DNA of 5,760 nucleotides from the IMG/VR virus record IMGVR_UViG_3300029391_000100. One strand, given 5' to 3'. Numbering within the stretch: the first letter of the stretch is position 1; every line of letters begins with the position of its first letter. The translations under genes were made by a program, and so were the position numbers. Below, piece after piece: positions 270-5,760 of this stretch. Origin of the DNA: a virus. The notes under the pieces are model-generated. The model was not told the DNA's origin. It saw only the letters and a list, made by a program, of their open reading frames with translations, and made no database searches.

Positions 270-1274
270 TCATACTTTTGGCTCACGCCACTTTTGTTTT
301 AGCTTGTCCTTTTCTTTTTGAATATTGAGATAGGTTTCATAATCCACGCTTGTGCTCTGTTCGAGATTGACCAAACTTTGTATTGCACTGCGTCTGCGTC
401 TGGCTCTAACCTCTCTCAGCTCGTCAGAATGTGCCTTAAAATAGCTTTCTTTGTCTTGGCTGGTATCTTTATCTAGAATCTTATCAAAATAGCGTGGAGG
501 CCTTTTTTCGCGTCCTCCTGCGCATATGATGCTATCTGTTTTTAAGATTTCATCTTTGTGCTCGTTTAGATATTTTTCGCCGATACCTTTCGACATGATT
601 CTAAACTCTGGTTCTCGACCTTCCATCCAGTATTTTACTGATTGTTCTGTCCCTATAGCTTTTTTGTTGACGTATTGTGCCACGTATGCGAAACTTCCCG
701 GTTGTGCTGGTGAAAAGTCTATCATGCCTTTGCCCCATATTTTTTGTAGCCACTCGCTTTTAAAATAGCTGTTGCCCTTTTGGTTTTTATACCATTGTGC
801 ATCAGGCGGTTTTAGTCCAAATACTATTGCATGATAGTGTGGTCTTTTTGTTCTGTCACCATATTCAGCCGCTAGGAAATATTTTATCGGCTTCTTGTAC
901 GCTTTCCGCAGCCGTTTTAGAAATAGCTGCACGTCTCGTTTGCTTACTGTCTGACTTTGTATGCTTTTGTATCCTTTGATGATTTCGCCGTAGGGTATAT
1001 GGTCGTCGTCATACGTCAGTGTTAGAAAAATCACATCGTCCCACTCTTTGGCTTCTAGCTCTATTCTGGTTGCCCATTGGTCTGCTATCTGTTTGCGGCA
1101 ATACTCGCATTTACCGCATGGTAACAATGCGAATTTTCCTTTTTTGATTCCGTCCATGATGTCCGCTTGCAGTCCTTGTTTTGATAGGTTTTCCAGACTT
1201 CCCCACAGTTTCGGTTTTTTCATATCCATTTGAAATACTAATGGTTTTGTACATGGCATTTTTGTTACCGGCAC
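270..1274 (-). CDS. Rolling-circle replication initiation protein (Microviridae VP4 / phiX174 gpA-like Rep). The probable true start is the ATG at 1259 (MPCTKPL...); the track start at 1274 is a GTG.
   Basis: Superfamily I Rep motifs are present: motif 1 FLTLTY, motif 2 HYHAIVF and motif 3 YVAQYVNKK with a double Tyr. The N-terminus has the Cys-rich segment PCGKCEYCR typical of gokushovirus VP4. Positions 1272..1274 are 'cac' (GTG), and the first ATG is the reverse complement of 'cat' at 1257..1259. The stop TGA is the reverse complement of 270..272. Confidence 0.9.
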   Translation of the reverse strand: MPVTKMPCTKPLVFQMDMKKPKLWGSLENLSKQGLQADIMDGIKKGKFALLPCGKCEYCRKQIADQWATRIELEAKEWDDVIFLTLTYDDDHIPYGEIIKGYKSIQSQTVSKRDVQLFLKRLRKAYKKPIKYFLAAEYGDRTKRPHYHAIVFGLKPPDAQWYKNQKGNSYFKSEWLQKIWGKGMIDFSPAQPGSFAYVAQYVNKKAIGTEQSVKYWMEGREPEFRIMSKGIGEKYLNEHKDEILKTDSIICAGGREKRPPRYFDKILDKDTSQDKESYFKAHSDELREVRARRRRSAIQSLVNLEQSTSVDYETYLNIQKEKDKLKQKWREPKV

Positions 1275-1598: not shown

Positions 1599-2471
1599 TT
1601 AGTCTCCTGTGTATGATTTTCCAGATTTGAATCCATCTATTAGTTTGCGTCTTCTTGCTGTCTTGTTGATAGTATCTTCTGCTATTTTGTCAACACCTTC
1701 TTTGGCTGCTTTACCAGCCTTTCCTACTGCGTCTTTCGCTGCTTTACCAGCTTTCGAAAGACCCGCGCCTAACTTGTTAGCTGCATAGCTGTATTGCTGC
1801 GCCTGTTTTGCGCTTGAGGTTGCCAGCTCGCTCGCTGCCTGTTCCCAGCTTTTCGCATTCTTAAACTGTTTTGCGCTGGTGGCCTGTTTTGCCAGGTTCA
1901 AGTATTTGTCTGCTAGCTCTGCTGTGTTGTTGCCGTATTCGTACATAGCGGATACACTTGCCGCTTGTGCGCTCTGTTGGTTATAACGTTGGCTTCCAAT
2001 GCTTGCAGATGCTCCCGATGGTGCGCTTGTTGCACCGTTGGTCGCTGCCAGAATAGGATTGATGCCCGCTGCAATCATGTCCTTTACGGTATCCTGATAG
2101 GCCGTTCCGCGCATTTCCTTTTGAAACGCTCGTTCTGCTGCTGCTTCTGCGCTGTTGTACTTCTTGGCGCTTGCTTGGCTTCCAGCATTCGCAAGGTTGC
2201 TCAGTAGCCCGCTCATCATTTGTAGTGCGTTTGCGGTGTTTACACTGCTTTGGTTACCAAATGTTGCAATGCCTGTTGGCGTGCTGATTTGTGTTGAACC
2301 TATCTGCTGTGGTGCTGTTACACTGCCGGTTGTGGTCTCGCTGCCGGTTGTGGTTTCGCTGCCTGACCCTTGGCTGTTTTTGGCGCTGCTCTGGTTACTG
2401 CTTGTTATGATGCCTGTTAACATGCTCAGCCCTTTCATGAGGGATGGCAAAAGCTTTAAGAATGTTTCCAT
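1599..2471 (-). CDS. Minor capsid / DNA pilot protein (gokushovirus VP2-like)
   Basis: The 290-aa protein is rich in Gly, Ser, Ala and Gln, with a moderately hydrophobic N-terminal segment (FLKLLPSLMKGLSMLTGII). It sits directly downstream of the major capsid gene, as VP2 does in Microviridae. The ATG is the reverse complement of 'cat' at 2469..2471. Confidence 0.7.
   Translation of the reverse strand: METFLKLLPSLMKGLSMLTGIITSSNQSSAKNSQGSGSETTTGSETTTGSVTAPQQIGSTQISTPTGIATFGNQSSVNTANALQMMSGLLSNLANAGSQASAKKYNSAEAAAERAFQKEMRGTAYQDTVKDMIAAGINPILAATNGATSAPSGASASIGSQRYNQQSAQAASVSAMYEYGNNTAELADKYLNLAKQATSAKQFKNAKSWEQAASELATSSAKQAQQYSYAANKLGAGLSKAGKAAKDAVGKAGKAAKEGVDKIAEDTINKTARRRKLIDGFKSGKSYTGD
2324..2364. 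repeat. In-frame 18-bp tandem duplication inside VP2 (two copies plus a partial third), encoding GSETTT-GSETTT
   Basis: 'ctgccggttgtggtctcg' (2324..2341) and 'ctgccggttgtggtttcg' (2342..2359) differ at one base, then 'ctgcc' follows. The protein reads ...SGSETTTGSETTTGSVT... Confidence 0.8.
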
Positions 2472-2509: not shown

Positions 2510-4183
2510 TTAAATTCTTTCGATGCCCGGGATGCTGTAGATAGGCATTTCGCGGTACCAGTCTTCGGTGAAGTAGAAGTCACATAAGAACTGATGGCTT
2601 TTTGCGCTTGTTACTGCAATCGTTCGGTCAATGTTCTGTGTTCCTTCCTGTATCCACTCTGCTGAGAGACGCGGAAGCGCGTTATAATCGTCCGCATAGT
2701 GCCATGCATCCAAACTAGTCTTGTAGTTAGAACGCATTTCACCGGTTACGTAGGAAGGTTTGTAGCGGTAGTCTGCCCATGCTTCTTGATATCCAAAGAT
2801 TTCGTTATCTTCTGCCGTGCCCTGTGCATAGATTTCACGGTTATACACCGGCTGTTCACCCAGTGCTGCAAGTCTCGGGTCGTAGTAGGTGAATCGCCCG
2901 CCGCGTGTCCACTTTGTCGCAAGCCCTTGCTGGTAGCTGTGTTCCACTCGTACCACTGCCAGACCGATGATGTAGCCGTTTTCGGTCGCTGCATAGTCTA
3001 CCATTTGCTTGCTGCACGTGGTCAGGCTGTATGCTGCCGTATTGCCTAGTGCCTGACCGGTTGTCGTGTCCGTCTGGCTCGTCTGGACGACCTGATTTAC
3101 ATTGATTGCGATGCGTTGCCCGCCGATGTATTCAGGAATTTGAAGTCGGCTGTCTGGTGACGTTACGCCCCATGTGCCCGATAGGAATTCACGGTATCGC
3201 GTGCCGTTGCGTGCATCTGCCTCGAAGATGTGCTGCAGTGCGATGCTCATGCGTAAATCCTGAATGCTGATCGCGCTTACTCCGCTTAGGTCTGCGCCTA
3301 GATAAGCTATATCATCTACTTTTGAGTTTTTGTTATTGCTTCCAGTTACTAGTCCGGTTCCTTTTCCTACAGTGTCGTTTTCAATTGCTGGTGCGTATTC
3401 GCCTGCATTTGGTTGGTTAAAGTAGATTGCATCTTTTCCACCTGCTGTTCCGAATACGCTTAGTTCTCTGTTTTTGTACAGTCCAACTGGTGCATTGCCA
3501 GTCAGGCTGATTTCCACAGGGTCAGTTTTCAACGGCGAAGGCAAACAGGATGTGAAGTAGTCGTGGAATTTGCCTACCTTTGCCGGAAATCGTGCATATA
3601 AGCTTGCTTCGTTTGTGTTTGTCGTTAGATCCGGTCTGTTTACATAGTATTCTTTTGTATCGTTTCCGGGTGTTTCGTCAGTTCCTCCTTCATCGCTTTT
3701 TTTGTACCCCAGCATGAGCGGTGCTTCTAGGTTTTCATCTCTGAACCACTCGTTGTAAATCATGGCGTATGCGCGTGCTGGCAGCGCGTTGACCTTGATT
3801 TTATTTTTTACTTCGGTTGGCAGTCCGAAGTAGTCGCCTATACTGCCATTTACCAGACCGCTTTTGCCTCCGATTGCGCAAGTCGGTGTGCTGTATTCGG
3901 TCTTTTCTGCCCAGTAGTTTGTATCGTTCTCGCCAAACATGTTCTCCCAGTGCTCCCACAGCAGACGGCACGGAACAAAAAAGAAATAGGTATCCATGTA
4001 GCAGTTATCCATGATAGGATAGATGGGAGTACTCATTCGGATAAGGCCGTTAAGTTGTACTTTTGCGGTATCGCCCGGAAGCACCTCATCACAGTAGATA
4101 GGCACCAAATCGCCTTCGTTGATGGTCGTCAACAGCTGGTGACTTCGGTCAAATTTGCTTCGCGGTCGTTCCATTCGTGGCAC
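2510..4183 (-). CDS. Major capsid protein VP1 (Microviridae F-like, gokushovirus type). The start is ambiguous: GTG at 4183 or ATG at 4174 (MERPRSKFDRSH...).
   Basis: The 557-aa protein has the characteristic N-terminal signature RSKFDRSHQLLTTINEGDLVPIYCDEVLPGDT of gokushovirus VP1. Positions 4181..4183 are 'cac' (GTG), and the first ATG is the reverse complement of 'cat' at 4172..4174. No Shine-Dalgarno lies upstream of either start. Confidence 0.9.
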   Translation of the reverse strand: MPRMERPRSKFDRSHQLLTTINEGDLVPIYCDEVLPGDTAKVQLNGLIRMSTPIYPIMDNCYMDTYFFFVPCRLLWEHWENMFGENDTNYWAEKTEYSTPTCAIGGKSGLVNGSIGDYFGLPTEVKNKIKVNALPARAYAMIYNEWFRDENLEAPLMLGYKKSDEGGTDETPGNDTKEYYVNRPDLTTNTNEASLYARFPAKVGKFHDYFTSCLPSPLKTDPVEISLTGNAPVGLYKNRELSVFGTAGGKDAIYFNQPNAGEYAPAIENDTVGKGTGLVTGSNNKNSKVDDIAYLGADLSGVSAISIQDLRMSIALQHIFEADARNGTRYREFLSGTWGVTSPDSRLQIPEYIGGQRIAINVNQVVQTSQTDTTTGQALGNTAAYSLTTCSKQMVDYAATENGYIIGLAVVRVEHSYQQGLATKWTRGGRFTYYDPRLAALGEQPVYNREIYAQGTAEDNEIFGYQEAWADYRYKPSYVTGEMRSNYKTSLDAWHYADDYNALPRLSAEWIQEGTQNIDRTIAVTSAKSHQFLCDFYFTEDWYREMPIYSIPGIERI

Positions 4184-4199: not shown

Positions 4200-4646
4200 T
4201 CACTGTTTCGGTTCGTTTTCCTTCACCTCTTCCCTCTTTTCTTCCTCTTTCTGCTTCGGCTGTTCGTCTTTCTGCTTCGGCTGTTCGGTCTGTTGCATCT
4301 GTTTCAGCTGTTCCAGTGTTTCGGCTGCAGCCTCGGCTTTTTCGTGCATCGTCATGATGTCTTTTGGCATATTTTCGAGGTCGGTGCCTTCGGTGTATAC
4401 CATGCTTTTAGCTTTGATGCTGGTATCCCCCGCTTCCAGCCGTGCGATTGCGCTTGCAAGGTCGTAGCCCTCGCCGGCTCGTTGGATTTTTTCGTATGTG
4501 TTCTCGTTCGGCTGCTCGATGTAGTCGGTTGTGCCGTTTGGTTGCTTTACCGCTTTCCACGTTGGCGCGGTCGTGCTGCCCGGATTGTTTGGTACTCTCT
4601 CGGTCGTCATACCGTAGAAGCGTACCATCACCTCAGGATTTAACAT
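4200..4646 (-). CDS. Hypothetical 148-aa protein with a Lys/Glu-rich low-complexity C-terminal tail. It is a candidate internal scaffolding (VP3-like) protein by position immediately upstream of VP1.
   Basis: It has a strong Shine-Dalgarno: the minus strand reads 'GAAGGAGGcagccaATG'. The C-terminus is ...QTEQPKQKDEQPKQKEEEKREEVKENEPKQ. Assignment as VP3 rests on position and composition only, because I could not recognise a family signature. Confidence 0.6.
   Translation of the reverse strand: MLNPEVMVRFYGMTTERVPNNPGSTTAPTWKAVKQPNGTTDYIEQPNENTYEKIQRAGEGYDLASAIARLEAGDTSIKAKSMVYTEGTDLENMPKDIMTMHEKAEAAAETLEQLKQMQQTEQPKQKDEQPKQKEEEKREEVKENEPKQ
4241..4282. repeat. In-frame 21-bp tandem duplication (two copies, 41 of 42 nt identical) in the tail of the 148-aa ORF, encoding EQPKQKD/EQPKQKE
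   Basis: 'ctttctgcttcggctgttcgt' (4241..4261) and 'ctttctgcttcggctgttcgg' (4262..4282). Confidence 0.8.
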
Positions 4647-4887
4647 TGGCTGCCTCCTTCAGGTCGATGAGCCGTGTGATGTGTTCAGGCATTGCCTCGC
4701 TCATGTAGCCTGTTTCTGTGTCGAATTCGCCCAGTTCTACTAGCGAAATATCTTCAATTTCGCTGGGCTTGCTCTCGTTGGCCTTCCATCGTGCCGTTCT
4801 AACTGCCTGTGCTCGGTTGTTCTGCAAGAATGGCTGTGAGTAGCCGTTGGTGAGCGAATCGTGGAATGAATAGAATTTCAGTTTCAT
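4633..4887 (-). CDS. Hypothetical 84-aa protein of unknown function; it could be VP5-like or a second scaffold candidate
   Basis: It has a Shine-Dalgarno: the minus strand reads 'taAAGGAGaaaaacATG'. Its 3' end overlaps the next ORF's start by 14 nt (ATGTTAAATCCTGA), consistent with translational coupling. No transmembrane segment is present. Confidence 0.55.
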   Translation of the reverse strand: MKLKFYSFHDSLTNGYSQPFLQNNRAQAVRTARWKANESKPSEIEDISLVELGEFDTETGYMSEAMPEHITRLIDLKEAANVKS

Positions 4888-5016
4888 GTTTTTCTCCTTT
4901 ACTTTTCGTCTTTGTTTGCGTCCTTCAGAGCGTGGTAAATTTCGTCGAGCTTTTCAAGAATGTTCATCATTAGTGCAATTGCTTCTTTAACGTCCTTGAC
5001 TTTGATTAACGCCATT
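4888..5016 (-). CDS. Unlisted 42-aa ORF (MALIKVKDVKEAIALMMNILEKLDEIYHALKDANKDEK) with a consensus Shine-Dalgarno
   Basis: The minus strand reads 'gAAAGGAGGcgaattaATG', giving 7-nt spacing. The stop TAA lies immediately before the Shine-Dalgarno of the 84-aa ORF. It is below the length cutoff of the supplied track and was found by manual translation. Confidence 0.5.
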
Positions 5017-5046: not shown

Positions 5047-5163
5047 TTACAGTCGGATACCGCCTCGTGAGATTTTCGGTCGGACGTTGATGTCTTTTAC
5101 TTTCTTTGCAGTCTGAGTAAATCGTTTCTGGTCGCCTTTACCTGCTCCGCTTCTATGTGCCAT
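5047..5163 (-). CDS. Unlisted 38-aa highly basic ORF (MAHRSGAGKGDQKRFTQTAKKVKDINVRPKISRGGIRL). It is a candidate DNA-binding/packaging protein analogous to phiX174 J and gokushovirus ORF8.
   Basis: Manual translation of the minus strand gives about 11 Lys/Arg/His in 38 residues, a size and charge like phiX174 J (38 aa). It has a strong Shine-Dalgarno: 'gcgAAGGGAGtaaaacaATG'. It sits among the structural genes. Confidence 0.55.
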   Translation of the reverse strand: MAHRSGAGKGDQKRFTQTAKKVKDINVRPKISRGGIRL

Positions 5164-5167
5164 TGTT

Positions 5168-5368
5168 TTACTCCCTTCGCATTAGTTCTAGTTCAATGTC
5201 GTTTATAAAGCTTTTTATTAGCCAAGTTTCGTTTACTATCTTTTTAGCGTCCTCGATGTTTGACACTTTTTTAAGCATTTTGTAATTGTCATCAATTTCT
5301 TTGTACTTTCGTTTGAGTAGAATTTCTAGTGCTTCTTTGGTCTGGTCTCTTACGTTCCATGTTTTCAT
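5168..5368 (-). CDS. Hypothetical 66-aa charged helical protein. The track's 83-aa version (to 5419) is probably an over-extension.
   Basis: The internal ATG at 5368..5366 is preceded by 'AAGGGGGTGtaacaATG'. The longer version would overlap the peptidase gene by about 50 nt and has no Shine-Dalgarno. The peptidase stop TAA (5373..5371) lies 2 nt before this ATG. Confidence 0.5.
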   Translation of the reverse strand: MKTWNVRDQTKEALEILLKRKYKEIDDNYKMLKKVSNIEDAKKIVNETWLIKSFINDIELELMRRE

Positions 5369-5370
5369 TG

Positions 5371-5760
5371 TTACACCCCCTTTCTGTATTTTTTGGTGCG
5401 TGTGTCGATGTGTACCCACGTGTCATATACGATAATGCCGCATTCATTCGGAATGATTGCATTCAGTTCGTTGGCGATTTCTTTTGCTTTCATTCCATTT
5501 ACTCGAATGTCCGCTGCCATTCCTCGCATGTGATATGAGTACTTTGCACCGCCTACCGCTTCATTCCTTGTTGGTGTCCGGTATCCACTGTTGATGATGA
5601 CAGGTTTTCCGATTTTGTTTCTGAGGATGTCTAGGATTGACACTAGGTAACTGTCTATAAAAACTACTTGTGAACCGTCTTTGCAAGCGAATTCCTTTAC
5701 TTTGAAGTGCTGCCCTACTTTTTTGTTTGCGTCTGTGTCCATGATATAGCTTTCAATCAT
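5371..5760 (-). CDS. Peptidase M15 family zinc D-Ala-D-Ala carboxypeptidase-like peptidoglycan hydrolase; putative lysis enzyme
   Basis: The 129-aa protein has zinc-binding signatures SYHMRGMAAD (H-x6-D) and a downstream VHID, plus SGYRTP, all characteristic of M15/VanY-like peptidases. The ATG at 5760..5758 is the first ATG after the upstream stop, once the circular wrap is taken into account. Confidence 0.8.
   Translation of the reverse strand: MIESYIMDTDANKKVGQHFKVKEFACKDGSQVVFIDSYLVSILDILRNKIGKPVIINSGYRTPTRNEAVGGAKYSYHMRGMAADIRVNGMKAKEIANELNAIIPNECGIIVYDTWVHIDTRTKKYRKGV
5638..5760. repeat. Terminal direct repeat, copy B (circular overlap)
   Basis: Identical to 1..123. Confidence 0.9.

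Follow-up and report, generated by a model that had tools for sequence, protein, structure and literature searches.

The window, that is, the whole 5,760 nt stretch of DNA analysed here, is a complete gokushovirus-type Microviridae genome in which the minus strand carries every gene. Along that strand these are an M15 peptidase (5760..5371; Pfam Peptidase_M15_3, E=8.9e-24; PHROG endolysin), an accessory 66-aa ORF beginning MKTWNVRDQ and called orf67 here (5368..5168), the 38-codon ORF considered below (5163..5047), a second 38-aa ORF of acidic character (5015..4899), VP5 (4887..4633; Pfam Phage_ORF5), the VP3 scaffold (4646..4200; Chlamy_scaf), the major capsid protein VP1 (4183..2510; Pfam Phage_F, E=5e-148), the VP2 pilot protein (2471..1599), and the VP4 replication initiator (1274..270). 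VP1, VP2, VP3, VP4, and VP5 were all assigned with Pfam and PHROG and amount to a full gokushovirus gene set. The ATG of the M15 peptidase occupies the final three bases of the window, and the genome was apparently linearised at the start of this gene.

The 38-codon ORF runs from an ATG at 5163..5161 to a TAA stop at 5049..5047 (minus strand) and encodes MAHRSGAGKGDQKRFTQTAKKVKDINVRPKISRGGIRL, a peptide of 4.2 kDa with a net charge of +9 and a pI of 11.85. An unlisted, basic 38-aa micro-ORF had been described at 5047–5163 in the initial annotation, with the strand unstated, and the sequence confirms it on the minus strand. Its content of Lys, Arg, and His, put there at about 30%, is 12 of 38 residues (six K, five R, and one H; 31.6%), while Asp and Glu together account for two. 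The ATG begins 4 nt past the TAA of the upstream ORF (5170..5168), also as described. The AAGGGAG Shine-Dalgarno (SD) sequence that had been placed at ideal spacing is present at 5177..5171, overlapping the final codons of the ORF upstream, and is separated from the ATG by a 7 nt spacer (TAAAACA) which includes the upstream stop codon. Scored as SD:anti-SD duplex energy, it reaches -7.9 kcal/mol, within the best 4.7% of 191 ATGs scored on both strands. Stronger values are found for VP3, orf67, and the acidic ORF (approximately -11.6 to -12.0 kcal/mol) and for VP5 (-8.7 kcal/mol), so the ribosome binding site is good, yet not the strongest in the genome. By the same measure, the GTG start listed for VP1 (4183, minus strand) has a poor SD (+0.4 kcal/mol) and that listed for VP4 (1274, minus strand) a moderate one (-5.4 kcal/mol); the true starts of these two genes may be internal ATGs, for example the one giving MERPRSKF for VP1.

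There are 82 ORFs of at least 25 aa in the window, and a 38-codon ORF is therefore not above chance by length alone. It could be a chance ORF in a noncoding spacer, preceded by a fortuitous SD-like purine run and with an excess of Lys and Arg driven by composition; the coding strand is strongly biased toward A over T, favouring AAA, AAG, and AGA codons, and the four closest GenBank relatives (KX513876, MT121961, KX513864, and KT264784, with peptides 82–87% identical) carry no annotation for it. What sets the ORF above chance is that its frame is held intact in all 54 close relatives, with a pN/pS of about 0.10. These relatives were fetched via VP1, independently of the ORF itself; 59 loci were obtained in this way, of which 54 are close (67–95% VP1 identity). 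The initial annotation had pointed to such genomes as the place where a spurious ORF would be missing or broken by stops and where coding potential could be judged. In every one of the 54 the ORF is exactly 117 nt long, with 38 codons and zero internal stops. The 54 nucleotide sequences are all distinct but encode just 26 distinct proteins, and variable sites are distributed 16/10/38 over the three codon positions, so that all 38 third positions vary. For all pairs the pN/pS comes to 0.10, and comparing the window with its relatives gives 0.16.

The five alternative frames behave differently: they have stops in many genomes or, in three cases, pN/pS values of 1.5 to 2.8, and each is interrupted in at least one of the 54 sequences. 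One antisense frame, broken in 20 of the 54, does have a low pN/pS (0.25), as expected of a mirror image of the sense frame. An overlapping functional element on the opposite strand was considered as a source of the conservation, but nothing of the kind came to light: the antisense frames are interrupted and Rfam has zero matches across the window. The conservation analysis refutes the chance-ORF explanation, to which we assign practically no weight, and the product also shares a PHROG with characterised VP8 proteins, as described below. The 38-codon ORF is a real gene under purifying selection.

It is also a core gene of this clade. All 54 close relatives retain it, compared with 47 for the acidic ORF and seven for orf67, and the neighbouring accessory ORFs are variable. 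Its SD is found in every relative with sufficient upstream sequence (median -8.7 kcal/mol, range -12.9 to -7.8) and has been kept despite at least four differing upstream contexts (the M15 peptidase, orf67, or others). In five distant VP1 relatives (L058–L062; 31–34% VP1 identity), tblastn with the window peptide found no convincing match.

A few of the relatives show irregularities at the start of the gene. The start codon is ATA in L034 and GTG in L031, and ATG in all the others; the rest of both ORFs is intact, and the two codons may reflect sequencing error, a rare start codon, or recent loss. In L012 (295–804) the M15 peptidase runs in frame into the gene without a stop, giving a 169-aa fusion ORF. 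The junction adjoins a run of A residues, and an assembly indel is thus the likeliest cause. In L017, L024, and L042 the gene is extended in frame upstream.

As to identity, MAHRSGAGKGDQKRFTQTAKKVKDINVRPKISRGGIRL matches phrog_10695 (39 positions) with E=5.6e-07. The same profile takes ORF8 of Chp2 (5.8e-19), VP8 of phiEC6098 (1.6e-10), and XCD03966.1 of Dulem virus 202, a GenBank "DNA binding protein" (1.3e-09), although the PHROG has no functional label of its own ("unknown function"). Diverse relatives were gathered by an exhaustive representative search (14 matches, E≤0.001) and by tblastn of phage records. One profile (A1) contained SpV4, which makes its match to the SpV4 structure 9CGM circular; the PDB was accordingly searched with a second profile (A2) of 13 sequences, comprising the window peptide and uncultured metagenomic relatives only. 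With hhalign, A2 aligns to Chp2 ORF8 at 94.9% probability (E=4.6e-08), up to both C-termini. Against 177,635 distinct PDB sequences its first and second matches, aligned end to end, are 8DES_E (E=0.0031), the "Putative DNA binding protein" of phiEC6098, and 9CGM (E=0.055), the "DNA binding protein ORF8" of SpV4, present as 60 chains in that entry. These are the only two solved VP8 chains. The match to them is specific but modest, as expected for peptides of fewer than 40 residues, and would not be overwhelming alone.

Single-sequence similarities point the same way to varying degrees. Between the window peptide and SpV4 VP8 similarity is weak (E=0.12); both have 38 residues, and 13 identities were counted by eye in a gapless alignment, while the MAFFT and HMMER alignments open a gap of one residue close to the N-terminus. 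A tblastn search with MAHRSGAGKGDQKRFTQTAKKVKDINVRPKISRGGIRL matched 825 phage records, 363 of them over 80% or more of the query length, and the named organism groups among the matches listed are all microviruses. With Chp2 ORF8 as query, tblastn finds Chlamydia phages only, and only over the last 17 residues, the low-complexity filter masking the Arg-rich part. Pfam gives no match for the known VP8 proteins and NCBIfam none for phiEC6098 VP8; neither has a VP8 model, so their silence is uninformative about membership. The Dulem virus 202 protein (39 aa) is about 67–68% identical to the window peptide over its full length, and is encoded two genes (~120 nt) upstream of an 80-codon "nonstructural protein" ORF, which corresponds to the position of VP5 in the window.

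VP8 proteins are short (about 37–44 aa) and strongly basic, end in RGG(I/R)R(L/F), and are retained as core genes in gokushovirus-type genomes with VP1 to VP5; the family is regarded as conserved across gokushoviral subfamilies (PMC9239249). The window peptide, of 38 aa and ending SRGGIRL-stop, has these properties, and judged by its sequence it is a member of the VP8 family. Taking the ORF itself (5163..5047), its conservation, the phrog_10695 match, and the profile matches to 8DES_E and 9CGM together, we are confident that it is VP8 (ORF8), the small basic internal DNA-binding protein of gokushovirus-type Microviridae. The central proposal of the initial annotation, a J-like DNA-packaging candidate equivalent to gokushovirus ORF8, is to this extent supported by the PHROG, by the alignment with Chp2 ORF8, and by the PDB matches to VP8. 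It had presented the role of ORF8 in gokushoviruses as one proposed; for the presence of VP8 in the virion that wording understates the case, since cryo-EM puts VP8 inside the capsids of SpV4 and phiEC6098 (PMC11281519).

The window shares its gokushovirus genome context with Chp2, phiEC6098, and SpV4, and a set of motifs with the VP8 proteins of the first two: a MA(H/R) start, a central F-(S/T/R)-x-(T/Y)-A, and a C-terminal RGGIR(L/F). SpV4 VP8 is more divergent, with a MRRK start, L-T-H-S-A, and RGGRRF. Lengths are likewise comparable (38–39 aa for SpV4 and phiEC6098 VP8, and 44 as annotated for Chp2 ORF8). There are also differences. Unlike the characterised VP8 proteins, the window peptide favours Lys over Arg and includes two Asp residues, and the N-terminal third of its sequence is rich in Gly (GAGKGD). 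The gene lies between the M15 peptidase or accessory ORF and VP5, whereas Chp2 ORF8 lies between VP3 and ORF4. The net charge of +9 is the lowest among the VP8 and J proteins compared, the others spanning +11 to +19 and including SpV4 (+13), phiEC6098 (+17), and Chp2 (+19) VP8 and phiX174 J (+12), and is +9 or +10 in all 55 members of the clade, while at 5.76 kb the window is the largest genome compared, those of the characterised VP8 proteins being 4.4–4.6 kb. At 60 copies, the window VP8 would offset approximately 9% of the phosphates, compared with 12–25% for the other VP8 and J proteins. Charge neutralisation may be less important here than tethering, which does not conflict with the VP8 assignment.

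The comparison with phiX174 protein J was drawn in the initial annotation, which described J as a 38-aa DNA-condensing protein; the J sequence used here, from NC_001422, indeed has 38 codons and is annotated there as "DNA condensation; core protein". Each virion contains 60 copies of J as an internal protein, whose basic N-terminal part binds ssDNA while a hydrophobic capsid-protein pocket anchors the C-terminus (PMC11281519, PMC11980548). Common descent of the window peptide with J, that is, true membership of the Bullavirinae Microvir_J family, might be suggested by several resemblances. Both have 38 codons and are very basic, both have two adjacent glycines ahead of a short C-terminal tail with a hydrophobic last residue (RGGIRL and VGGQQF, respectively), and the final four residues of VP8 and of J can be superposed in one and the same VP1/F pocket (PMC11281519). 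Only these four superpose, and the N-terminus runs toward the 5-fold axis in SpV4 VP8 but toward the 2-fold axis in phiX174 J (PMC11281519). The profile searches argue against homology: Pfam Microvir_J (PF04726) finds phiX174 J (60.9 bits, E=1.7e-16) but neither the window peptide nor the known VP8 proteins, even with the threshold relaxed to E=10, A2 aligned to J with hhalign reaches a probability of 0.8%, and J falls in phrog_2354 and phrog_3780 ("DNA condensation"), outside phrog_10695. Thus, of the two families that the initial annotation had suggested for comparison, ORF8 matches and J does not. The genome context is not that of J either; in the phiX174 type of genome J is found between D/E and F, with an external scaffold D and a spike G, and no homologue of D or G was detected in the window with Pfam or PHROG. 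Homology to J is accordingly very unlikely, and at the level of sequence the VP8 described here is an analogue of J and not a detectable homologue.

Conservation within the family is concentrated in two blocks. The most conserved is the C-terminal SRGGIRL-stop (5047..5067, minus strand), a putative capsid anchor. A2 shows no variation at R33, G34, or G35 and almost none at R37 and L38, and the motif is conserved across A1 and A2 as well as in 8DES_E and 9CGM; the corresponding C-termini are RGGIRF in Chp2 ORF8, RGGIRL in phiEC6098 VP8, and RGGRRF in SpV4 VP8. The second block is the mid-section F15-T-Q-T-A-K20 (5104..5121, minus strand), a candidate second VP1-contact segment, in which F15 and T18 never vary and A19 hardly does. 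Further invariant or nearly invariant columns are K23, N26, P29, and K30, and positions 5–14 are variable yet basic, being rich in Gly, Lys, and Arg.

These two blocks coincide with the two segments of SpV4 VP8 that touch the capsid. In the 2.5-Å cryo-EM structure of SpV4, VP8 lies on the inner capsid surface, its residues 33–38 and its mid-section (residues 14–20) touch VP1, and a hydrophobic pocket of VP1 close to the 2-fold axis encloses its last residue; residues 9–13 are ordered only in DNA-filled particles, and in phiEC6098 VP8 the C-terminal 10 residues are ordered (PMC11281519). The presumed binding partner in the window, VP1, is closely homologous to the two capsid proteins of known structure (9CGM_A, E=3.5e-115; 8DES_A, E=3.2e-108), and the Tyr of its DTY motif is conserved, aligning with SpV4 Y83 beside the pocket for the VP8 C-terminus.

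VP8 and J are described as conserved ssDNA-binding, charge-mitigating proteins which replace the internal scaffold during packaging (PMC11980548; PMC7062461; PMC9239249). By homology to the VP8 proteins of SpV4 and phiEC6098, and by analogy to phiX174 J, we infer copy number, capsid docking, and DNA binding for the window peptide along the same lines. VP8 would be translated from its own ribosome binding site, and at packaging some 60 copies would accompany the single-stranded genome into the T=1 procapsid. The C-terminal RGGIRL tail and the F-T-x-T-A mid-section would dock on the inner face of VP1, the final hydrophobic residue sitting in the VP1 pocket. The variable, Gly/Lys/Arg-rich N-terminal third, presumably flexible, would reach inside and bind the DNA backbone non-specifically, offsetting part of its negative charge and tethering the genome to the shell.

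A conserved small protein could instead have some other main role outside the virion, for example regulating when replication gives way to packaging, or acting as a translational-coupling leader for the downstream small ORF and VP5. The position of the gene within the variable accessory region that separates VP4 from VP5, the conserved small ORF that closely follows it, and the low charge relative to characterised VP8 proteins could be read in this way. On the other hand, homologues are physically present in virions (60 chains in 9CGM) and the conserved residues map onto the capsid-contact segments. Coupling would be unneeded, since the downstream ORF has a stronger SD of its own (-11.6 kcal/mol), and VP8 is kept in the seven of 54 relatives with no detectable acidic ORF downstream. 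Such a role is thus extremely improbable, and a virion VP8 is by far the preferred reading.

The class of gene is already established, including by cryo-EM, and the window ORF adds a member to a known family. VP8 is a core structural gene that is often missed by annotation pipelines, its 38 codons falling under most gene-caller and track cut-offs; with VP8 identified, the gene map of this human-gut-type microvirus is complete. An SD combined with the C-terminal RGGIR(L/F) signature is a reliable means of finding members of the family. On the question of how much neutralisation of DNA charge a T=1 ssDNA capsid needs, the VP8 of this clade, with its low charge beside a large genome, contributes a minor data point.

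The acidic ORF 31 nt downstream of VP8 (4899–5015, minus strand) is a second unlisted ORF of 38 aa and encodes MALIKVKDVKEAIALMMNILEKLDEIYHALKDANKDEK, which looks helical and mildly acidic. It is preceded by the SD AAGGAGG (-11.6 kcal/mol) and is found in 46–47 of the 54 relatives, with ~95% identity and a pN/pS of 0.09. There is no Pfam match and only a weak PHROG match (E=0.033), but it looks like a real gene. It could conceivably work as a pair with VP8, a two-peptide module not described before, by chaperoning VP8, timing its delivery, or being a second internal peptide of the virion. This idea comes from adjacency (in 47 of 54 genomes), co-conservation, and charge, and we regard it as a long shot. 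In two relatives, L025 and L056, no homologue of the acidic ORF was detected; directly past the VP8 stop codon they have a tandem repeat, aaggctgcatgctg, with at least 2.5 copies in the 40 nt read.

On the other side of VP8, orf67 has a very strong SD (-12.0 kcal/mol) and, being present in only seven of the 54 relatives, is an accessory gene; an 83-aa version listed from a GTG at 5419 overlaps the M15 peptidase. The M15 peptidase is found in all 54. In eight of them (L009, L021, L041, L043–L045, L051, and L054) it comes after VP8 and is only ~44% identical there, which suggests that the lysis cassette has been replaced or relocated in these loci.
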